Position numbers and translations under genes: made by a program
IMG/VR virus record: IMGVR_UViG_3300037420_000246
Location: 3,642-67,641 of that record
Strand: one strand, 5' to 3'
Length of the DNA stretch: 64,000 nt
From: a virus
Shown: piece by piece, positions 2,308 through 50,710 of the stretch
Layout: every line of letters starts with the position of its first letter
Position numbering within the stretch: position 1 is the first letter of the stretch
Notes under the pieces: model-generated
Database searches by the model: none
What the model was told of the DNA's origin: nothing
What the model saw: the letters and a program-made list of their open reading frames with translations, nothing else

Positions 2308-2760
2308 ATGGCTGGCTCTTCTGCTATTACTAGCGCAACTACAAAACTGTATATCTCGCCTAACCTCCCTTCTTCGTTTGACCAAGCTGGCTATACTGCT
2401 GTCTCAGGTTGGATTCTTATCGCTGAGGTCAGCAATATGGGTACGTTCGGTGCAAAAGCGGGCACCGTGAAGCACGTTCCGATTGACACCGCAGTAGTTG
2501 TCAAACGTGCAACAAGTGTCGATGCAGGCACACTCTCGGTCACTTTGGCTCGCCACGCTGGGGCAGATGTCACTGCACTGCAAACTGCTGCTAACAATCG
2601 GACCTCGCAGTCGTTTAAAGTGGTCTATCCCACCGCACTTGGGGTGTCGGACTACTTTACAGGCATCGTACTTGGTACACCCACCACAGTAGGAACTGCG
2701 GAGCAGATTCTGCAAATGAACGTTGACATCGAACTGGATTCGATTCCGGTTACGTTCTAA
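2308..2760 (+). CDS. Putative major tail tube protein
   Basis: 150 aa; strong SD (AAAGGAAATAAAATG); followed by strong hairpin terminator as typical for abundant MTP; precedes chaperone and tape measure genes. Confidence 0.5.
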   Translation: MAGSSAITSATTKLYISPNLPSSFDQAGYTAVSGWILIAEVSNMGTFGAKAGTVKHVPIDTAVVVKRATSVDAGTLSVTLARHAGADVTALQTAANNRTSQSFKVVYPTALGVSDYFTGIVLGTPTTVGTAEQILQMNVDIELDSIPVTF

Positions 2761-2764
2761 TAGG

Positions 2765-2786
2765 AGAGGGCTCACGCCCTCTTTAA
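2765..2786 (+). terminator. Rho-independent terminator-like hairpin
   Basis: AGAGGGC-TCAC-GCCCTCT 7-bp stem followed by TTTAAG directly after stop codon of putative major tail gene. Confidence 0.5.
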
Positions 2787-2930
2787 GTAACAAGAGTACC
2801 GCTGTGAAGCGCCTCTTAAGTTATTTTCCTCCACAAGATGACTTAATATAAGTTTTACACTGACACTTACGGGAGTGTAGGCCGGATACCTACCTCCCGC
2901 CTAAGTGTATCTAATAAAGGTACACAAGGG

Positions 2931-4301
2931 ATGCCAAAGAAATTAACACAAGAAGAATATCTAGCTAACTGCATTAACGCCCACGGCTCGACGTACAATT
3001 TAGAAAGAATTGTGTATCGCGGAACGATGTCGAAAGTTACTGTCGGTTGTCCAATCCATGATTGGTTTGAAGTGAAAGCCGGATCATTTATGAGAGGGAC
3101 TGGTTGCGCCAAGTGTGCTGCAGATAAGCGGGGTCTTAACAGACGACTCTCAGAGGGAGAATTCTTATCGCGGAGTGTCGCGCGGCATGGACAAGACTAC
3201 GGATACCAATTTGTAAACTACGTGAAGACGGATGTTAAGGTCAAGATTCTCTGCAATCGCTGCGAATGCACCTTCGAGATGACGCCAGAGTGTCATATGG
3301 CAGGACAAGGCTGTCGTGATTGTGGATACGAGAAGAATGGCTTGAATAAGCGCAGCAAGTTTGAAGAATTCGTCAAAGCCTCGCGTGAACATCACGGACA
3401 AAAGTTCAATTATGATGGTGTTGATTGGAGAGGAAATAAACAATCTATTGAGTTGTTTTGCCCTGTCCATCAAGAATATTTCACGACTACGCCAGCACTG
3501 CACGCGAAAGGAGCGGACTGCCCTAAATGCGCTAAACAACGAGGTGGTCTGAAGAACCGCAGTAATACCGAGAAGTTTGTCAAAGATGGAACTGAGAAGT
3601 TTGGAACACGATTTGACTACTCTGAAGTGGACTACATCAAAAGCAATCTTAAAGTGAAGATTCGTTGTGTTACGCATAATAAGTGGCTTTCTGTGACTCC
3701 GAATATGCATCTAGCAGGTTTTGGAGGTTGTGCGGATTGCGCTAAAGAAGCCACGAGTGAGCGTTGTAAGAAGTCAACGGAGCGTTTTGTCCTTGACGCC
3801 ACTAAGGAGCACGGTTCTCGGTATGGCTATGATCGTTCCATTTACAACGGTGCGTACAACAAAGTAGAAATTCATTGCAGAGAGCACGGCTATTTCTGGC
3901 AGAGCGCTGGCGCTCACATAGCAGGCCGAGGTTGCTCTAAATGTGGTAACAACGGGTATAAAGTAAACAAATCTGGGTATCTTTATGTTCTATACGATGG
4001 TGAATTAACTAAGGTTGGCATTACAAACAGGAACCCTGAAATCCGTTGCAAGTTTATTGCTAAGAAGTCTGAACGCCCATTCGAAGTTTTGAAGTTTTAC
4101 CACTTCGATGACGGCGGAGTTCCGTTGAGTCTTGAAACAAAACTGCTGAGTGAGTTGTGGCAAACATATAAGTCTCCAACAGAGAAATTTTCAGGATACA
4201 CCGAGTGCTTTTACCATGTTGACCAAGCCGCCCTACTAAACCGAATTGAATCACTAATCAAAGAGCAACATAGCTCTTACTCCGCTTCACCAGAAGCATA
4301 A
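2931..4301 (+). CDS. Homing-endonuclease-like protein: four zinc-ribbon repeats + C-terminal T5orf172/GIY-YIG-like domain
   Basis: Four ~60-aa repeats each ending G-x-G-C-x-[KD]-C-[AG]; C-terminal GYLYVLYDGELTKVGIT motif resembling GIY-YIG/T5orf172; inserted between tail tube and chaperone genes with its own flanking hairpins. Confidence 0.6.
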   Translation: MPKKLTQEEYLANCINAHGSTYNLERIVYRGTMSKVTVGCPIHDWFEVKAGSFMRGTGCAKCAADKRGLNRRLSEGEFLSRSVARHGQDYGYQFVNYVKTDVKVKILCNRCECTFEMTPECHMAGQGCRDCGYEKNGLNKRSKFEEFVKASREHHGQKFNYDGVDWRGNKQSIELFCPVHQEYFTTTPALHAKGADCPKCAKQRGGLKNRSNTEKFVKDGTEKFGTRFDYSEVDYIKSNLKVKIRCVTHNKWLSVTPNMHLAGFGGCADCAKEATSERCKKSTERFVLDATKEHGSRYGYDRSIYNGAYNKVEIHCREHGYFWQSAGAHIAGRGCSKCGNNGYKVNKSGYLYVLYDGELTKVGITNRNPEIRCKFIAKKSERPFEVLKFYHFDDGGVPLSLETKLLSELWQTYKSPTEKFSGYTECFYHVDQAALLNRIESLIKEQHSSYSASPEA

Positions 4302-5229: not shown

Positions 5230-8200
5230 ATGGCACTAGAGGCAAGCTCACTACAAGTCGTGGTTTCCGGGTCGGGAATCGAGGCGACAACTAAACAACT
5301 TAACGACCTCGCAGCGGCTGGCGAGAAAGCCGAAAAGAGTACAACTAAGCTTGCTCAATCCTCTAAGGATAGTTCCAAAGCCCAAGTAGATGCTGCCCAA
5401 CAAGCTGCCTCTCAGTACAACGCCATCATTGATATGATGACGGAGAAATCCAACACATATTATGCCGACAAAGCTGCCAAAGCTGCTATTGCTGCTCAGC
5501 AGGAGCTTTACGATGGCATGGTAATGATGGATAAGTTGCGTGCCGGTGCTGAAGGTTATTACGCCGATCAGGCGGCCAAGCGAGAGAAAGACCATCAAGA
5601 TGTATTGGCGAAACAGCAAGCTCAGAAGAACGCTGCTGAGGCACGCTATGCTGCTGAACAAGAGCTTGCCAATCGCATGAATGCTGCCTTCGATAAGCGG
5701 CAAGCTCAGACTGAAGCTATGGCGATTAATGCCAAATTGGATGCTGACACAAAAGCTCTGAAAGCCGATGGAGATGCGTTCACAGCTATGCTTAAGACGC
5801 AAGCTGAAAAAGTTGGCTTGACTACTAAAGAACTCCGCGAATATAACGCAGAACAGCTTCGTACTAAAGCAGCACAGCTTGGACTTATGCAGGCAGGCAG
5901 TGAGTCCAAGGATAAAATTGACGGTTATATCAACACCATCAAGAATGCAAAAGGCCCGCACGAGTCCTTTAACCTCCTCACCGCAGGCTCTGCACGCGAA
6001 CTGATGGTGTTGACTCACGAGCTTAGCCAAGGGCAGTTTCAGCGCTTTGGTGGCTCTCTTATCGTGTTGGCAGAACGTATTAACTTCTTGCCTAGCGTGC
6101 TTGAAAAAGCTGGTGCTTTTGCAGCAAGCCTTGGAGTGAGTTTGGGAGTGCTTGTTGCTGCTGTGGCTGCTGTTGTTGCAGTGGTGGGTACAGCAATATG
6201 GACATTCACTAAGAGTGGTACCGCACTGAAAGAAATGCGCAATGAAGTGATTTTGACAGGTCACTCAATCGGTGTTACAGGCGATCAACTGTATGACATG
6301 GCTAACAAGATTGGCGAGGCTACAGGCAAGTTTGGTGCTGCTCGTGAAGCTGTTATCCAACTGGCATCCACTGGCAAATTCACTGCTGACCAAATCAAGT
6401 TGATTACTGAAGCTGCTGTAGGTCTTGAAAAGTATGGTGGTGTTGCAATTGACAACACAATCAAGCAATTCGAAAAGCTTGCTGCTGAGCCGATTAAAGG
6501 CGCTCAGCGTGGATTCAAAGGTGTGTCTGAAGCAGCAATGGAGCTTGATAAGCAGCTTCATTTCCTCACTCCACAAATGCTGGATGAAATTATCCATTTG
6601 GAGCGTATTGGAGATGCAGCAGGGGCATCCAAGAAAGCAATTGGTAGTTTGGCCGAAGAAGAGAAAAAGCGTGTTCAGGAGCTTAAGAACAACCTTACTC
6701 CTATTGGCGTCCTGTTTGACACCATTGCCGAGAAGGCTTCTAAGATGTGGAATAACGTATTCCATAAGAAGTCGCTGACAGAGCAACTGGAAGATGCCAA
6801 GGACAATCTCGCTCAGATTCAAGGTGTGAATGGTGTACATCCTGAACAAACCCACCAAGCCAATGCTATTGCAGAAGTGGCTAGGCTTGAAAAGAAAATC
6901 AGGGATCAAGCTGAGAAAGAAAAGCAAGAGCAGCACAACAAAGAGGTTGCTCGCACAGCAGAATTGGCGCTTATCCATCGCCGTACTCTGCTTGATATGG
7001 GCAAGGATGAGGATACTCTAACAGCACAAACTGCGCGCGATGCAGCAGACCGTGCAGCGATTAAGGCAGCAGGGCTTAAGTCTGAACTATTCTCTGCTGA
7101 AGCAGATGCCGAAGCAATGGCAATCATTGAGAAGAAATACAAGCAGAAAGTTACACCAACTCCCGGCCTTGGTATGTCCAAGGTGAATTCGCGTATCGCT
7201 GAATTGCAAATGGAGTTTGAGAAGGCTTCTTATTTCGCAGATAAGGAAATGAAGCTGGAGCAAGACAAGGCTAAGCATCATGAAGTGTCTGCCCTCAAAC
7301 TTTATAACGATCAGCAGAAGTATTTCAATGATCGACAGAAACTGATTGATGATACAGAGGCAAAAGAGATTGCTGCCACTAACCTATATGACCACGGTGC
7401 GAAGAACAAGGACAAGCTGGCAGAAGAGGCTGCAACCAAACGTTTTGAAATTGAGAAGCGCTACGACATGCTGCGAGGAAAACTTGCTGCTGATCGAGAC
7501 GCCGCCGACACTGCATTGGAACGTGCAAACAAAACTGCCGAAGACAACCGGGAAGAAATGTATGTCAAAGGCACTCAAACTATCAATGCTGAGACAAAAG
7601 CCCTTCAAGACAAGATCGCTGGCTACAATCTGATCCCTGAAGCCATCCGTAAGGCTGGCATCAGTGAGAAACAGATGCAGGACTATTTCACTCAGGCTGA
7701 GATTGACAACATCCAAGAGCGCATTGATGCTCTGAAGCAGTTCGATGGGGTTGACGGCACAATGATGGCGGCTGAAATCGCTCGTCTGAATGCTCGGAAG
7801 AATGCTTTGGATGACAAGCGCAAGGCTCAGAAGGCTTGGGAGGATGTGCAGGCTGGGAATGCTGCCGCCCTTAACACCCCAGCAGCAATGAAAGCCAACG
7901 CTGCTGAACAAGTGAAACTGTGGAAAGACGCTGGCAACGAGATTCAGAAAGCGCTTACACAAGCTTTTGGTGAATCTGGTAAAGCTGCTGGTGAAATGTT
8001 TAAAGCATTCTCGGAAGGCCAAGCTAATCAAATCGATTTGACACAGAAAGTTGCTGAAGCTAACAGGCGCACCGACCTCTCAAAAATTGAGCAAACACAG
8101 CTTATCACAGCCCTGCAAAATCAGCAAGAGCAGAATCAGTTGAACATGTATGGCAACATGGCGAATGCTGCATCACAGTTTTTTGACCATCAGTCTAAGG

Positions 8201-18513: not shown

Positions 18514-20394
18514 TTAGATGATTTCGCAGGCACCACCAGCACACGCACTCTCAGCAGCAAGGTCTACGGCGTTCCCGTTTTCTTCAAACACTTGCCCAAT
18601 GTCGATTCCTTCAAGAAGCGGAAGCAGAGACTCGTAGCGCTCTTTCGTAATATCCTCAAAAGGAAGTTGAGGATATGCTTCGGCCCCTGCAAAAGGCAAC
18701 ACGGAGATGCCATTGTAGTGATCCTTGTTTTCCCACATCCACTTCGTCAGTTCTGCCCATTCATCATTCTTGACAGAGATAGTACAGCTAACGTTGTGTT
18801 GATTAATGCCGGTACGATGCCCTGCTGACACCCAATTTTGAGACACATTCTTCACACGTTCCAGAAGAGAATTCATCGTCTCTGTCCTTACCGTTGCGCC
18901 ATCAGGGGCCTTCTGCGGGAAACTCAGTACAACTTGGTGGGGCACGAACACATCCTGCTCTACAAGAGACGGAGCGGCTTTCATCATATATTGTGCAAGC
19001 GCCTCATCTTTACCTGCGCGCATACGGCGGATGTAGTAGGGAGCATGCCAAGCGTGAATGCCACTCGAAGTGCCCAACACAAGCGACGTAGTACCCGCAG
19101 GTTTCACACACGTTACTCGTGCAGCCTTCTTAATACCAAGCTGTTTAGCCACAGCAGCGTTAGTATCAAGGGCGTGCTTTGCTGCTTCACTCATGTTCAA
19201 CGGTTCTACAGTGCCAGATGCAATACCAGTCATAGACACGCCCAGCAGCGCATCCTTTTCGCAAGCAATCTTCCATTTAGGATTCAAGTAGTGGAAGTCT
19301 GTATATCCTGCTTGAAGCGTGCCGATGAATGCTGCTGCTGATGCTGCTTCGTTGAAGCTTTGTTGGTCAGTGATGGCGCTTGCATTAATTTCCGAAAGAT
19401 TGCACATTTGGTACGGGCGCAAGGCAATTTCACAACATGGGTTCGTTCCCCAATCTTTGTTGTTCGTCCAATACACTCCCGGCTCTCCACAACCACTGTC
19501 TTCTACACGCTTCATCAGTTCAGCAAACTCTTCCTCAGTAACTTCCCCACGAGGCAGCACAGCAGAGTTATTAGAGCGAGCACGATACGGATGCGTCAGA
19601 TACCACTCACCGGATTTTGCAGAAAGCATTTCTTCATCATCACGATCAAACAAGCTAATCATAGCTGCACGGCGAATACCTCCTGCCAACACTGCATCTG
19701 CAATGATACAAGCCATGTCATGCACTTCAATAGGTTTCAGCTTTCGTCCGACAGCAGAACGGAGAAGCACAGTGAGCTTTTCTACACAAACTCGTAGTGG
19801 CTCTGGTCCCGGTGCTTGCCCACCAGTCGTAACCAACTCACTCCCTTTTTCCCGAATGTCCCGATAGTCAAATACAGGCAGAGTGCCCGCGTTGAAGAAT
19901 GCCTTGGCTACCACTTTAATAGCATCGCTCCAACCAATAATACTATCTTGCACTTGAAACTTGTATTCACCATCCGACTCAGGTAGTTTCACTTTAGGCA
20001 GCTTGCCTACATGACGCCTCTGCACAGAGTAGCCCATACCCGTACCGCCCAACAGCAGGAACATAAGCTCGCTGAAGAAGTGGGGAGACTCAGCAGGAGC
20101 ATACGCACAATTGAAGATACGTGCCTCATTCAATAGGATGGGACGACCACCAAATTGCAGCGAGCGCATCGACGGCAGTACACGCTTGGTATCAACAAAA
20201 TTCTTATACACGCCATGAATCTCATCAGCCATCTCTGGATACTTTTCGATGTGCATCGCTTGATTGCGAGCGCTAATCTCGATAAAGTTTTCCCGACGAT
20301 TCAGTTCAGGTACAAATTTTGCATACTTGTTAAAAACAGTAATATCCGACAGTGCTTTTTTATCCATTGATTTCATTTCCTTTTGATTGCTCAT
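18514..20394 (-). CDS. Ribonucleotide reductase catalytic chain (possibly class II/B12-dependent; no beta-subunit gene seen)
   Basis: 626 aa; NPCCEIALRPYQMCNLSEIN active-site region resembling RNR NPCGE/CNL motifs; C-terminal redox Cys pair ACAGGACEII; adjacent glutaredoxin. Confidence 0.8.
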   Translation of the reverse strand: MSNQKEMKSMDKKALSDITVFNKYAKFVPELNRRENFIEISARNQAMHIEKYPEMADEIHGVYKNFVDTKRVLPSMRSLQFGGRPILLNEARIFNCAYAPAESPHFFSELMFLLLGGTGMGYSVQRRHVGKLPKVKLPESDGEYKFQVQDSIIGWSDAIKVVAKAFFNAGTLPVFDYRDIREKGSELVTTGGQAPGPEPLRVCVEKLTVLLRSAVGRKLKPIEVHDMACIIADAVLAGGIRRAAMISLFDRDDEEMLSAKSGEWYLTHPYRARSNNSAVLPRGEVTEEEFAELMKRVEDSGCGEPGVYWTNNKDWGTNPCCEIALRPYQMCNLSEINASAITDQQSFNEAASAAAFIGTLQAGYTDFHYLNPKWKIACEKDALLGVSMTGIASGTVEPLNMSEAAKHALDTNAAVAKQLGIKKAARVTCVKPAGTTSLVLGTSSGIHAWHAPYYIRRMRAGKDEALAQYMMKAAPSLVEQDVFVPHQVVLSFPQKAPDGATVRTETMNSLLERVKNVSQNWVSAGHRTGINQHNVSCTISVKNDEWAELTKWMWENKDHYNGISVLPFAGAEAYPQLPFEDITKERYESLLPLLEGIDIGQVFEENGNAVDLAAESACAGGACEII

Positions 20395-44091: not shown

Positions 44092-44121
44092 ATTCTAGAA
44101 CACTTCTCTGAGCCCTGTCAA
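44092..44121 (-). promoter_or_regulatory. Sigma70-like promoter for leftward operon: -35 TTGACA, 18-nt spacer, -10 TAGAAT
   Basis: Plus-strand ATTCTA at 44092-44097 and TGTCAA at 44116-44121, about 35 nt upstream of the first minus-strand gene. Confidence 0.5.
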
Positions 44122-44189
44122 GCCCCTTGTTGTGTTCACTCTACAACTATGTTCACGTAACATGAACAACATTCTTACGCGAACAGCAC

Positions 44190-44218
44190 TTGACATCCCT
44201 CTACAAGCCCCGTACAAT
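44190..44218 (+). promoter_or_regulatory. Consensus sigma70 promoter for rightward early operon: TTGACA-N17-TACAAT
   Basis: TTGACA 44190-44195, 17-nt spacer, TACAAT 44213-44218; 40 nt upstream of ATG 44258. Confidence 0.6.
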
Positions 44219-46212: not shown

Positions 46213-46236
46213 ATGTATGGGCAGGTGTCATACCTG

Positions 46237-46308
46237 CTACGACAGAGCTTGTCGCAAAATCTACGACAGGGGTTGTCGCTACAGGTGTGACAGAGCTTGT
46301 CGCAAATA
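46237..46308 (+). repeat. Three tandem 24-bp iterons (nnnnGACAGrGsTTGTCGCnnnnn)
   Basis: CTACGACAGAGCTTGTCGCAAAAT / CTACGACAGGGGTTGTCGCTACAG / GTGTGACAGAGCTTGTCGCAAATA; further GGGTTGTC half-site at 46322. Confidence 0.6.
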
Positions 46309-46684
46309 TGCAACAAAATATGGGTTGTCTGGTCATATCGTTTGCTGTGACATTCGGTTACTTTGTGTAGACACGATAACCCATTCATAAGAATCTTACA
46401 AGCACATTCTAGAGGGAGTTACACATGTGAGATTGTTGCATTGCCACATTCCATACAGTTGTCTTGTTGACCATAGGTAACTTCCCATAGCATGATGTAC
46501 AGCAAACGGCAATAGATTTTAGAGCGCACGGTTAAAATTTTTCTTGTGTTGCTGGGAATGTTGTTTTATAGTGTCACTCATGGACAGCAAGCAGAGACAA
46601 GGTGGAATGTCAAGATTGCCCTAGCTGCCCTGCTAGGTGGCTGTACAACAAACTAACTGAATACAAACTTAAGGAGAATTGAAC

Positions 46685-47365
46685 ATGAAAGACGCTACGA
46701 TGACCGCCGTAATCCCTCGCTTTGCACCAATTTCGAACAAGGCAGTGATTTTCCTTCCTGAGACGAAGGAAAACGGCAGGATTGACATGATTACGGAAGG
46801 GCAACGTATTACCGTTGGCATCGACTACTACATGGCTACAGAGCCCCTCAGTGCCGAAGATGCCAAGAAAGTGGCGCTGGCATTTGCACAACACGAGCAC
46901 ATCAATCCTGACATGCTCGTTATTCGTCAGCGTCTGCCCAAGACGATGAATAAACGTCCTAGCCGTCTGAATGACGCTAACCTTGTTCTTGTCCAACAGG
47001 AGCAACCTAAACAAGAAGCTGCACCAAGCTCGCTCGCGGAATTCGCGCAGGCACTACAGGATGAGCACAATCGCCGGCAGGGCGACAAGCAAGAAGGGCA
47101 GAAAGCCACTGCGCATCAGCCAGAAGGCGCTGTTGTAGAAACTAAAACCAAGAGGAAGTACAACAAGAAGACTGCTGAGGAACGTTCACGCCGTAGCGCT
47201 GCTGCCATGAAGCGTTACCAAGAAGAACTTGCCCGCGTAAGCTCGCAGTCTCCTACGTTGATGGAACCTGTTGCAACCGATGCACCAAAGCCTGTCGTTG
47301 ACCAAGCGATTCTTGATCTGGCTCAGGCTTTGGCCCGTATCCTGAAGGTGCCCGGTGCCGTCTGA
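46685..47365 (+). CDS. Hypothetical DNA-binding-like protein (basic helical region)
   Basis: ATG 46685, SD AAGGAGA; 226 aa; Gln/Ala-rich linker then basic segment KTKRKYNKKTAEERSRRSAAAMKRYQEEL. Confidence 0.5.
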   Translation: MKDATMTAVIPRFAPISNKAVIFLPETKENGRIDMITEGQRITVGIDYYMATEPLSAEDAKKVALAFAQHEHINPDMLVIRQRLPKTMNKRPSRLNDANLVLVQQEQPKQEAAPSSLAEFAQALQDEHNRRQGDKQEGQKATAHQPEGAVVETKTKRKYNKKTAEERSRRSAAAMKRYQEELARVSSQSPTLMEPVATDAPKPVVDQAILDLAQALARILKVPGAV

Positions 47366-47388
47366 TATACTTACCGCTGTGGTCCTTT

Positions 47389-47416
47389 GCCCGCCTTTGT
47401 GCGGGCTTTTTCTTTT
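47389..47416 (+). terminator. Rho-independent terminator
   Basis: GCCCGC-CTTTGT-GCGGGC followed by TTTTTCTTTT. Confidence 0.65.
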
Positions 47417-47435
47417 GTAGCTTCGAAAATTTCTC

Positions 47436-47464
47436 TTGACTCCTTAAAATTGTTATGGCAAGAT
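47436..47464 (+). promoter_or_regulatory. Promoter-like element TTCTCTTGACTC-N17-CAAGAT
   Basis: Same 12-mer -35 context as 53536 promoter; lies between terminator and alarmone-hydrolase gene. Confidence 0.35.
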
Positions 47465-47512
47465 AATGTCACTGCGTAACATATTGAAGATTCTTAACAA
47501 GGGAGAACTTGC

Positions 47513-47935
47513 ATGAATCATGGTGCTGCTGTTGGGCTGGCCCTTAAATATCACAACGGTCAAAAATATGGAGAACACACCTACATCTATCACTTGAGTT
47601 GCGTAGTGGACAGTGTGTTGGATGCCAATTATTATGGGGCAGAAGTGGATGTAGCCTACCTCCACGACATCCTAGAAGACACTGCCTGCACTGAAGAAGA
47701 GCTTCGCCAGAAATTCAGTGCTGAGGTTGTTGATGCTGTTGTGGCTATGACGAAACGTGAAGGCGAGGCTTACGAGGAATACATTAAGCGTGTCCGCAGC
47801 AATTCCATCGCCCATGTCGTAAAGATTCACGATACGATGTGCAATCTAGCTGAGAGCCTGAAGCAGAACCAGATTGGACGTATTGCGAAATATTCTAAGC
47901 AGATGTATTTGCTGACGAAGGGGGTTGACGAATGA
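47513..47935 (+). CDS. Small alarmone hydrolase: RelA/SpoT-type HD-domain (p)ppGpp hydrolase (Mesh1/SAH-like)
   Basis: KYGEHTYIYHLSCVV...VAYLHDILEDTACTEEELRQKFSAEVVDAVVAMTK matches the SpoT hydrolase HD motifs (H...HD..ED...FG..V..LV.GVTK); 140 aa stand-alone. Confidence 0.65.
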   Translation: MNHGAAVGLALKYHNGQKYGEHTYIYHLSCVVDSVLDANYYGAEVDVAYLHDILEDTACTEEELRQKFSAEVVDAVVAMTKREGEAYEEYIKRVRSNSIAHVVKIHDTMCNLAESLKQNQIGRIAKYSKQMYLLTKGVDE

Positions 47936-48108
47936 CCTACATCCTAGTTGTTTTCCTGAGCATCTACAGCAAGCCTTCCTCGCTCGTAGGCATCGAATTT
48001 AATTCACTAGAAGCTTGTCAAGCTGCTGCCACTGAAATCCGAAAGCAACGGAATAGTGATACATCCATTGGAATCCTGTTCTGCTCTGCAAAAGGTGAAA
48101 AGAAATGA
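47932..48108 (+). CDS. Hypothetical small protein (58 aa)
   Basis: Not in track; ATGA overlaps at both ends. Confidence 0.35.
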   Translation: MTYILVVFLSIYSKPSSLVGIEFNSLEACQAAATEIRKQRNSDTSIGILFCSAKGEKK

Positions 48109-48308
48109 CCCGCCAAGAAGCCACCATCATCTCAGCCTACACAGGCGTCATGTTCGGCAACAACTTTCCAGATGTCTGTGCCTACGCCGAGAAGCTTCTA
48201 GGCCGTAAAGTGGAGCCTTGGGAGTTTGTCAAGCCAAGCTTTTGTGAGCAACTGAAGCAAGAGGCTGAGAAGGATTTTCTGGCATTGAAAATTACTGAGG
48301 ACAAATAA
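48105..48308 (+). CDS. Hypothetical protein
   Basis: 67 aa ORF. Confidence 0.5.
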   Translation: MTRQEATIISAYTGVMFGNNFPDVCAYAEKLLGRKVEPWEFVKPSFCEQLKQEAEKDFLALKITEDK

Positions 48309-50542: not shown

Positions 50543-50710
50543 ATGAACAACACAAACTCAAAGTTAGTAGCTGCCTACATCAGAACGCATTTTGTACGCT
50601 TCGAAATGGGCGATTTTATGGGTGTGGACGAATCTCCATCGCTCGACAAGCTGCTCAATTTGGAAGCTCTAGTTAAGATGGCTATTGAGGAAAAGCGGAG
50701 GGAAGGATAA
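50543..50710 (+). CDS. Hypothetical small protein (55 aa)
   Basis: Not in track; SD AAGGAGAACAAAATG; stop overlaps next ATG. Confidence 0.4.
   Translation: MNNTNSKLVAAYIRTHFVRFEMGDFMGVDESPSLDKLLNLEALVKMAIEEKRREG

Follow-up and report, generated by a model that had tools for sequence, protein, structure and literature searches.

The gene described in this study is located in a stretch of viral DNA of 64,000 nucleotides (positions 3,642 to 67,641 of IMG/VR record IMGVR_UViG_3300037420_000246), which is termed the window in the following and which excludes about 26 kb of the phage genome. It codes for a protein of 140 amino acids with the features of a small alarmone hydrolase (SAH) and is accompanied on the same strand by these elements:

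46679–47365, plus strand: gene for a 228-aa protein, ending the preceding transcription unit
47389–47416, plus strand: intrinsic terminator of the upstream 228-aa gene, GCCCGC-CTTTGT-GCGGGC followed by TTTTTCTTTT
47436–47464, plus strand: candidate for a sigma-70-like promoter, TTGACT (47436–47441), a 17-nt spacer and CAAGAT (47459–47464)
47499–47505, plus strand: Shine-Dalgarno sequence AAGGGAG, separated by 7 nt from the start codon of the SAH gene
47513–47935, plus strand: predicted SAH gene, 140 aa, ATG start, single RelA/SpoT-type HD hydrolase domain
47932–48108, plus strand: 58-aa ORF of phrog_3766, with an ATGA overlap with the SAH stop (47932–47935)
48105–48308, plus strand: gene for a 67-aa DUF7736 protein, with an ATGA overlap with the 58-aa ORF

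The genes of the window comprise a tail block, containing a tail assembly chaperone, a 1937-aa ORF taken as tape measure and a DUF4376 protein, and genes of replication and nucleotide metabolism coding for a DNA polymerase, a primase/helicase, an exonuclease, ThyX and an RNR-like protein. For a 626-aa protein encoded at 18514–20394 on the minus strand, similarity to the RNR barrel domain is weak and limited to about 40 residues (E=7e-9), and the protein may represent a highly diverged enzyme of RNR type. Starting at about 44.1 kb, the window contains a rightward block of small genes, and it is among these genes of early type that the SAH is found, beyond the replication genes and separated from the last of the tail genes by about 30 kb. 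At 44092–44218, two strong back-to-back promoters of sigma-70-like type, TTGACA-18-TAGAAT on the minus and TTGACA-17-TACAAT on the plus strand (both matching 11 of 12 consensus positions), indicate where transcription changes from a leftward to a rightward direction, in what is likely an early-control region. Many intergenic positions ahead of gene blocks on both strands (for example 1023, 24409(-), 28259(-), 34838(-), 38629(-) and 63230) also combine a perfect TTGACA -35 box with a good -10 hexamer, which suggests that the phage probably depends on the host RNA polymerase throughout; a phage-specific promoter motif is not obvious in the window.

When the locus was compared at the DNA level, for both near and distant matches, with 50,697 phage records and with every complete E. 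coli genome, no close relative emerged, and a tblastn search with the 456-aa protein encoded at 2931–4298, which matches annotated hypothetical proteins and endonucleases, returned only sequences of at most about 34% identity, mostly from Vibrio and enterobacterial phages. In the whole window, there were no Rfam matches at the gathering threshold and no tRNAs. A related contig of 90,006 bp (L001), recovered at the same size from two JGI samples, has provided the comparisons described below.

Transcription signals and operon layout

The earlier note had portrayed the gene as a self-contained moron, composed of a terminator, a promoter and the gene itself. The terminator at 47389–47416 is borne out by our analysis, where it appears as a match of the terminator scan. 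Its stem consists of six base pairs, all of them GC, that extend from 47389 to 47406, and it is followed by TTTTTCTTTT, which runs to 47416, with a hairpin energy of -12.4 kcal/mol. A hairpin is found at the same place in the related contig (GCCCCGC..GCGGGGC followed by a T-run), where one base pair is added on both arms and the energy amounts to -15.4 kcal/mol. The promoter proposed at 47436–47464 has held up in its upstream half, with a -35 box that matches the consensus in five of six positions, whereas the -10 box CAAGAT is weak (three of six) and the site was not among the matches of a consensus scan. An alternative -10 element, GATAAT at 47462–47467, would be separated from the -35 box by 20 nt. 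In the related contig, the corresponding sequence reads TTGACT-17-TATTAT, and since both sites share the -35 box and spacer (CTTGACTC..TAAAATTnTTATGG), a real promoter at this position is plausible. A riboswitch or attenuator in the 147-nt leader was considered and dropped, as the terminator hairpin was the only structure obtained by folding (z = -0.5).

The conservation of the terminator-promoter pair in the related contig thus defines a boundary between two transcription units. The first of these ends with the 228-aa gene, whose product has no Pfam or PHROG match and is 48% identical to a 227-aa protein encoded at the same relative position of the related contig. Upstream of this gene, a non-coding gap of about 470 nt (46213–46678) harbors three head-to-tail units of 24 nt at 46237–46308, each with the inverted repeat CGACA-N5-TGTCG and of operator-like appearance, an array that is absent from the related contig. 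In the second unit, the SAH, the 58-aa and the 67-aa ORFs are translationally coupled by their overlapping stop and start codons. Gene calls on independent contigs from this phage also include the 58-aa ORF, and a gene of 58 aa is called in the same slot of the related contig, for whose product blastp finds no similarity to that of the window. The 67-aa protein belongs to phrog_13999 (E=4.5e-12) and PF24875 and is 48% identical to its counterpart in the related contig; in both cases the DUF7736 gene is located two genes 3' of the SAH (48105–48308 in the window and 6634–6831 in the related contig). The two small proteins, of phrog_3766 and DUF7736, could have a functional link to the hydrolase.

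Within this arrangement, the SAH gene is either the first or an internal gene of the second transcription unit and is not a self-contained recent insertion. The description as moron finds no support, because there is no convincing terminator on the plus strand for several kb 3' of the gene (with only weak sites containing three G-C pairs at 50597, 51176 and 51850), because the stop codon of the gene overlaps with the next start as ATGA, because its GC content of 0.468 is typical of the window (0.460) and because the related contig contains an SAH of 68% amino acid identity in the same syntenic slot, 3' of the 227-aa gene and 5' of the DUF7736 gene. The terminator on the 5' side is that of the upstream gene, and in the related contig two additional small genes lie between the promoter and the SAH gene. 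No other protein of the neighborhood is conserved to the 68% of the SAH, with the values of its neighbors ranging from 35 to 60%. Its conservation in place, and to a higher degree than the remainder of the early-type cluster, in two related uncultured phages of about 90 kb argues for a core function during infection rather than for accessory cargo. Two antisense ORFs (47453–47665 and 47672–47830, both on the minus strand) were taken as shadows of the conserved plus-strand frame.

Fold and active site of the encoded protein

The assignment of the 140-aa protein as a stand-alone SAH with a RelA/SpoT-type HD hydrolase domain is well supported by sequence and by structure prediction. The reading frame contains the three SpoT hydrolase motifs HTYIYH, AYLHDILEDT and FSAEVVDAVVAMTK exactly as quoted previously. 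HD_4 is the sole Pfam family above the cut-off (29.2 bits compared to 27.2), in agreement with the earlier claim that a synthetase domain is absent, and within PHROG the protein matches phrog_990, annotated as 'metal-dependent phosphohydrolase', with E=4e-42. The match to the NCBIfam model spoT_relA is confined to the N-terminal hydrolase part, and the protein is thus composed of a single hydrolase domain, without synthetase or regulatory domains according to Pfam and NCBIfam. Among solved structures, the best match in sequence is Aph1 (adenosine 3'-pyrophosphohydrolase 1) from Bacteroides caccae (7SMG, E=4.6e-15, 34% identity), followed by the SAH of Pseudomonas aeruginosa (PaSAH; 6YVC and 6Z3N, E of about 1e-9) and by the hydrolase domains of Rel and SpoT proteins.

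The same relationships are reflected in the predicted structure. An AF2 model based on an alignment with 48 homologues was obtained with a pLDDT of 95.8 and a pTM of 0.90, and a Foldseek search of the PDB identified Aph1 as top match (TM 0.83, rmsd 2.1 Å, 34% identity), with significant matches being restricted to Aph1, PaSAH, MESH1 and the hydrolase domains of Rel and SpoT. Model and 7SMG superimpose end to end over 139 columns, with TM values of 0.83 and 0.82 when normalized to the length of the query and the target, respectively. In contrast, the model covers only about 60% of PaSAH or MESH1, the latter of which shares 20–23% of its residues with our protein in the Foldseek alignment. The model displays the compact topology of the Aph1 family and lacks the additional helices that (p)ppGpp hydrolases carry at both termini.

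Y24, H27, H51, D52, E55, K104, D107 and N111 are invariant in the alignment of 48 homologues, and D56, K126 and Y127 are conserved in at least 90% of them. In the predicted assignment of roles, H27, H51, D52 and D107 would act as metal ligands and E55-D56 as catalytic residues, with N111 and K126-Y127 as further constituents of the site. H27, H51-D52, E55-D56 and D107 are also invariant upon alignment with Aph1, PaSAH, the PVP-SE1-type SAH and the SAH of SSU5, where N111 and K126-Y127 align with the equivalent Asn and Lys-Tyr positions. The profile searches and structure prediction that the earlier note had proposed as checks, together with the alignment of the catalytic residues whose absence it had named as a refutation, have thus revealed an HD-hydrolase fold with the catalytic His and Asp residues in place, and its assignment stands, with HD_4, phrog_990, the match to Aph1, the AF2 fold and the conserved active-site residues all pointing to the same conclusion. 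All testable features that define SAHs as a branch of the RSH superfamily are present in the protein.

Specificity residues and the GQxYG clade

For Aph1, the determinants of substrate selection have been characterized in detail (PMC10083569). Its signature comprises D24, R96, D116, R119, K133 and Y134, of which D24 and the loop positions D116-R119 were shown to enforce specificity for (p)ppApp, and a D24R/R119A double mutant has gained the ability to hydrolyze ppGpp. All 12 Aph1 homologues investigated in the same study hydrolyzed ppApp, with modest activity towards ppGpp in only two of them (PMC10083569). Our protein retains three of the six signature residues, namely R93, K126 and Y127 (R96, K133 and Y134 in Aph1). 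In contrast, D24 of Aph1 has no counterpart, as the respective stretch, GQK-YG, contains one residue less, and a deletion of four residues removes the D116-R119 loop, thus leaving a distance between the conserved Asn and Tyr that equals the one found in PaSAH, an enzyme of dual specificity. A different situation is found in the SAH of PVP-SE1 type, whose orthologue GAP31_029 displays the full Aph1-like pattern D..DxxR..KY and matches Aph1 with E=6e-25.

Both deviations are shared by a large group of relatives. Among about 160 close homologues of up to 200 aa, 132 contain the six-residue spacer GQ-x-Y-G-x-x with its invariant Tyr, 125 contain a 14-residue spacer between the Asn and the Lys-Tyr pair and 99 combine both, as does the Pakpunavirus protein PaoP5_031. 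These shared features place our protein in a distinct, large and mostly phage-borne clade, which we term GQxYG and define by the invariant Tyr in place of D24/K25 of Aph1 concomitant with the loss of the D116-R119 specificity loop. It encompasses most of the approximately 190 closest sequences examined, those of Pakpunavirus included. Homologues of the protein populate 1,413 clusters at 50% identity (E<=1e-10) and occur in 374 phage records and also in phage-like contigs of 80–190 kb, where they are located beside replication genes. Three homologues (P0076, P0082 and P0170) have a size of 320–400 aa and align with our protein in two distinct segments, which may reflect tandem-duplicated or fused SAH domains.

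Since D24 and the D116-R119 loop are absent, the rules established for Aph1 cannot define the substrate preference of our protein or of its clade, a conclusion that was also reached by the authors describing the Pakpunavirus Adele for their homologue (PMC12846349). The sequence signature argues against a strict specificity for (p)ppApp, and without the complete Aph1 signature the protein should not be classed among the (p)ppApp-specific hydrolases of Aph1 type. It is conceivable, if at this stage speculative, that the GQxYG clade constitutes a functionally distinct SAH subfamily of broad substrate range, acting on (p)ppGpp, (p)ppApp and possibly 3'-pyrophospho-tRNA, which would serve large lytic phages as a general early counter-measure against the stringent response and abortive infection by toxSAS. 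Our search of the literature has retrieved no report on the substrate range of this clade or on its role in real infection.

Possible role during infection and relation to known systems

Previous studies on stand-alone phage SAHs provide the framework for a functional interpretation. Upon co-expression, the SAHs of Salmonella phage PVP-SE1 (PbcSpo) and of SSU5 (PaSpo) neutralized CapRel, PhRel, PhRel2, FaRel and FaRel2, leading Jimmy et al. (2020) to propose that incoming phages employ such enzymes to bypass alarmone-based defense (PMC7229694). The CCA end of tRNA that was pyrophosphorylated by FaRel2 was restored by SAHs (10.1101/2021.04.30.441581), and the SSU5 enzyme is in routine use to detoxify CapRel during protein expression (PMC9712102). 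On balance, we favor a mechanism where our protein acts as a compact metal-dependent 3'-pyrophosphohydrolase, encoded by the first cistron of an early-type operon transcribed by the host RNA polymerase, that would prevent growth arrest by alarmones or toxSAS. The operon, proceeding from the SAH via the 58-aa and the 67-aa DUF7736 ORFs onward, would be expressed in a phage of about 90 kb with its own replication genes. In the infected cell, the enzyme would remove the 3'-pyrophosphate from (p)ppApp and probably also from (p)ppGpp, and by analogy to other SAHs it might also act on 3'-pyrophosphorylated CCA ends of tRNA. The host would as a result be kept out of an alarmone- or toxSAS-imposed arrest of growth and translation that would abort phage production. 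We infer the substrates and the benefit to the phage from the assembled evidence, and the early timing only from the layout of the genes.

Within this mechanism, the role for which the protein was selected could be defined in more than one way. The earlier note had preferred a dedicated counter-defense, where the enzyme would neutralize toxSAS of the CapRel, PhRel, FaRel or FaRel2 type by degrading (pp)pApp or by repairing pyrophosphorylated tRNA rather than by acting on housekeeping (p)ppGpp. The rescue from all five tested toxSAS and the repaired tRNA ends described above are consistent with exactly this role, as are the relationship to Aph1, a (p)ppApp hydrolase and immunity protein that is the closest solved relative, and the location of the gene in an early-type cluster of small genes, which is a frequent site of anti-defense genes. 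[quoted passage not shown] A dedicated counter-defense is thus a possibility to be taken seriously, to which we would nonetheless assign less than even chances.

Alternatively, the enzyme might primarily hydrolyze the (p)ppGpp of the host and in this way hold transcription, ribosome synthesis, nucleotide pools and replication in 'growth mode'. Such a take-over of host physiology would be in line with the absence of the residues equivalent to D24 and R119, whose replacement in Aph1 enables ppGpp hydrolysis (PMC10083569), with the loop length shared with the dual-specificity enzyme PaSAH and with the apparent reliance of the phage on sigma-70 promoters of its host. There is also a precedent in other phage factors that lower (p)ppGpp, the MazG-like Atd1 and the portal protein Gp8 (Gp8: PMC13483052). 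Conversely, the protein resembles Aph1 more closely in sequence and fold than it does any (p)ppGpp hydrolase, the modest ppGpp activity of Aph1 homologues was confined to two of 12 proteins, and the Arg contacting the guanine in Rel is not evident in our protein, where the stretch reads GQKYG. We thus regard a main role in host take-over as somewhat doubtful. As selected role of the protein, we rate counter-defense against toxSAS and general suppression of the stringent response about equally. A contribution to either, in defense against toxSAS or in the tuning of host physiology, is a reasonable and plausible inference, which is not new, because the former was already proposed and investigated by co-expression in 2020 (PMC7229694).

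It appears improbable that the hydrolysis of alarmones would be incidental and that the protein would instead process another 3'-phosphorylated compound such as NADPH, PAPS/pAp or a signaling nucleotide of a defense system. This is conceivable in light of MESH1, which shares the same fold, hydrolyzes NADPH and binds PAPS (10.1101/2021.04.30.441581 and the PDB titles of 5VXA and 9CHY), and in light of the invariant Tyr that is specific to the base-binding stretch of the GQxYG clade, but all bacterial and phage SAHs characterized so far act on alarmones, and the identity to MESH1 is only 20–23%. Immunity against a (p)ppApp-synthetase toxin of the phage itself, although exactly the role of Aph1 with respect to MuF-Apk2 in a prophage of Bacteroides caccae (PMC10083569), is very improbable, as only 0.4% of Aph1 homologues are linked to MuF (PMC10083569), as the SAH gene is found among small early-type genes and not 3' of a head or MuF gene, as there is no adjacent RSH-synthetase toxin gene of the kind known from the FaRel/ATfaRel and MuF-Apk2/Aph1 modules, and as no RelA_SpoT synthetase or Apk toxin was detected in the SAH neighbors or in about 30 larger ORFs of the window (in three Pfam batches and one PHROG batch, a scan that excluded the 1937-aa tape-measure ORF, ORFs below about 150 aa and the 26 kb outside the window), with synthetase domains also absent from the flanking genes displayed for homologues in other contigs.

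If our preferred mechanism of a 3'-pyrophosphohydrolase that prevents alarmone- and toxSAS-imposed arrest holds, the protein adds one more member to the phage-borne alarmone hydrolases, and it would change little in an idea that has been published and partly investigated by co-expression since 2020. The remaining novelty is modest and concerns the uncharacterized GQxYG clade and its substrate range. This clade lacks the residues that make Aph1 specific for (p)ppApp, and it is shared with therapeutic phages of the Pakpunavirus group.

The described properties define the relationship of the protein to known systems. With Aph1 (7SMG; Ahmad et al., 2023, PMC10083569) it shares the compact single HD domain of about 140–150 aa, the phage-borne origin, the HD/ED residues and the equivalents of N114, R96, K133 and Y134. 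It differs by the absence of D24 and of the D116-R119 loop and by a gene neighborhood where neither a (p)ppApp synthetase toxin nor a Tis1-like immunity gene adjoins. Like our protein, PbcSpo of PVP-SE1 and PaSpo of SSU5 (PMC7229694) are single-domain SAHs with intact HD/ED residues that stand alone in large phage genomes, and their published function, the neutralization of all tested toxSAS upon co-expression, is the one proposed here. Sequence identities amount to 34% for GAP31_029 of PVP-SE1 type (E=5e-13) and to 29% for SSU5_099 (E=2e-9). The former carries the full Aph1-like signature that is absent in our protein, which belongs to the separate GQxYG clade, whereas PaSpo, with 213 aa and additional C-terminal helices, is closer to Rel, SpoT and MESH1. 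PaSAH of P. aeruginosa (6YVC) has the HD fold, the catalytic residues and the same distance between Asn and Tyr, but shows only 25% identity, is larger, with about 190 aa and an extra C-terminal helix, and, in contrast to the phage-borne protein of our study, is encoded on the chromosome and tied to the biology of Tas1 and the T6SS.

The relatives in the Pakpunavirus group, which are part of phrog_990, include PaAdele_032 of phage Adele, where it is annotated as small alarmone hydrolase (PMC12846349). In Pseudomonas phage PaoP5, the homologue PaoP5_031 is annotated as hypothetical, and PaoP5_029, located two genes 3', as 'putative phosphohydrolase' (2486–3046 and 3467–4021). The motifs GDFAF and GNHC of PaoP5_029 look calcineurin-like by eye, and as both proteins are present, annotations in this phage group can confuse the two. 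PaoP5_031 is about 36% identical to our protein and differs from it by a larger size (186 aa) that includes an insertion and a C-terminal extension, and by its gene neighbors, which code for a cell-wall hydrolase and a DNA ligase. It nevertheless resembles our protein in its GQ-x-YG motif, in the 14-residue spacer between the Asn and the Lys-Tyr pair, in its stand-alone organization within a lytic phage of about 90 kb and in its predicted function.
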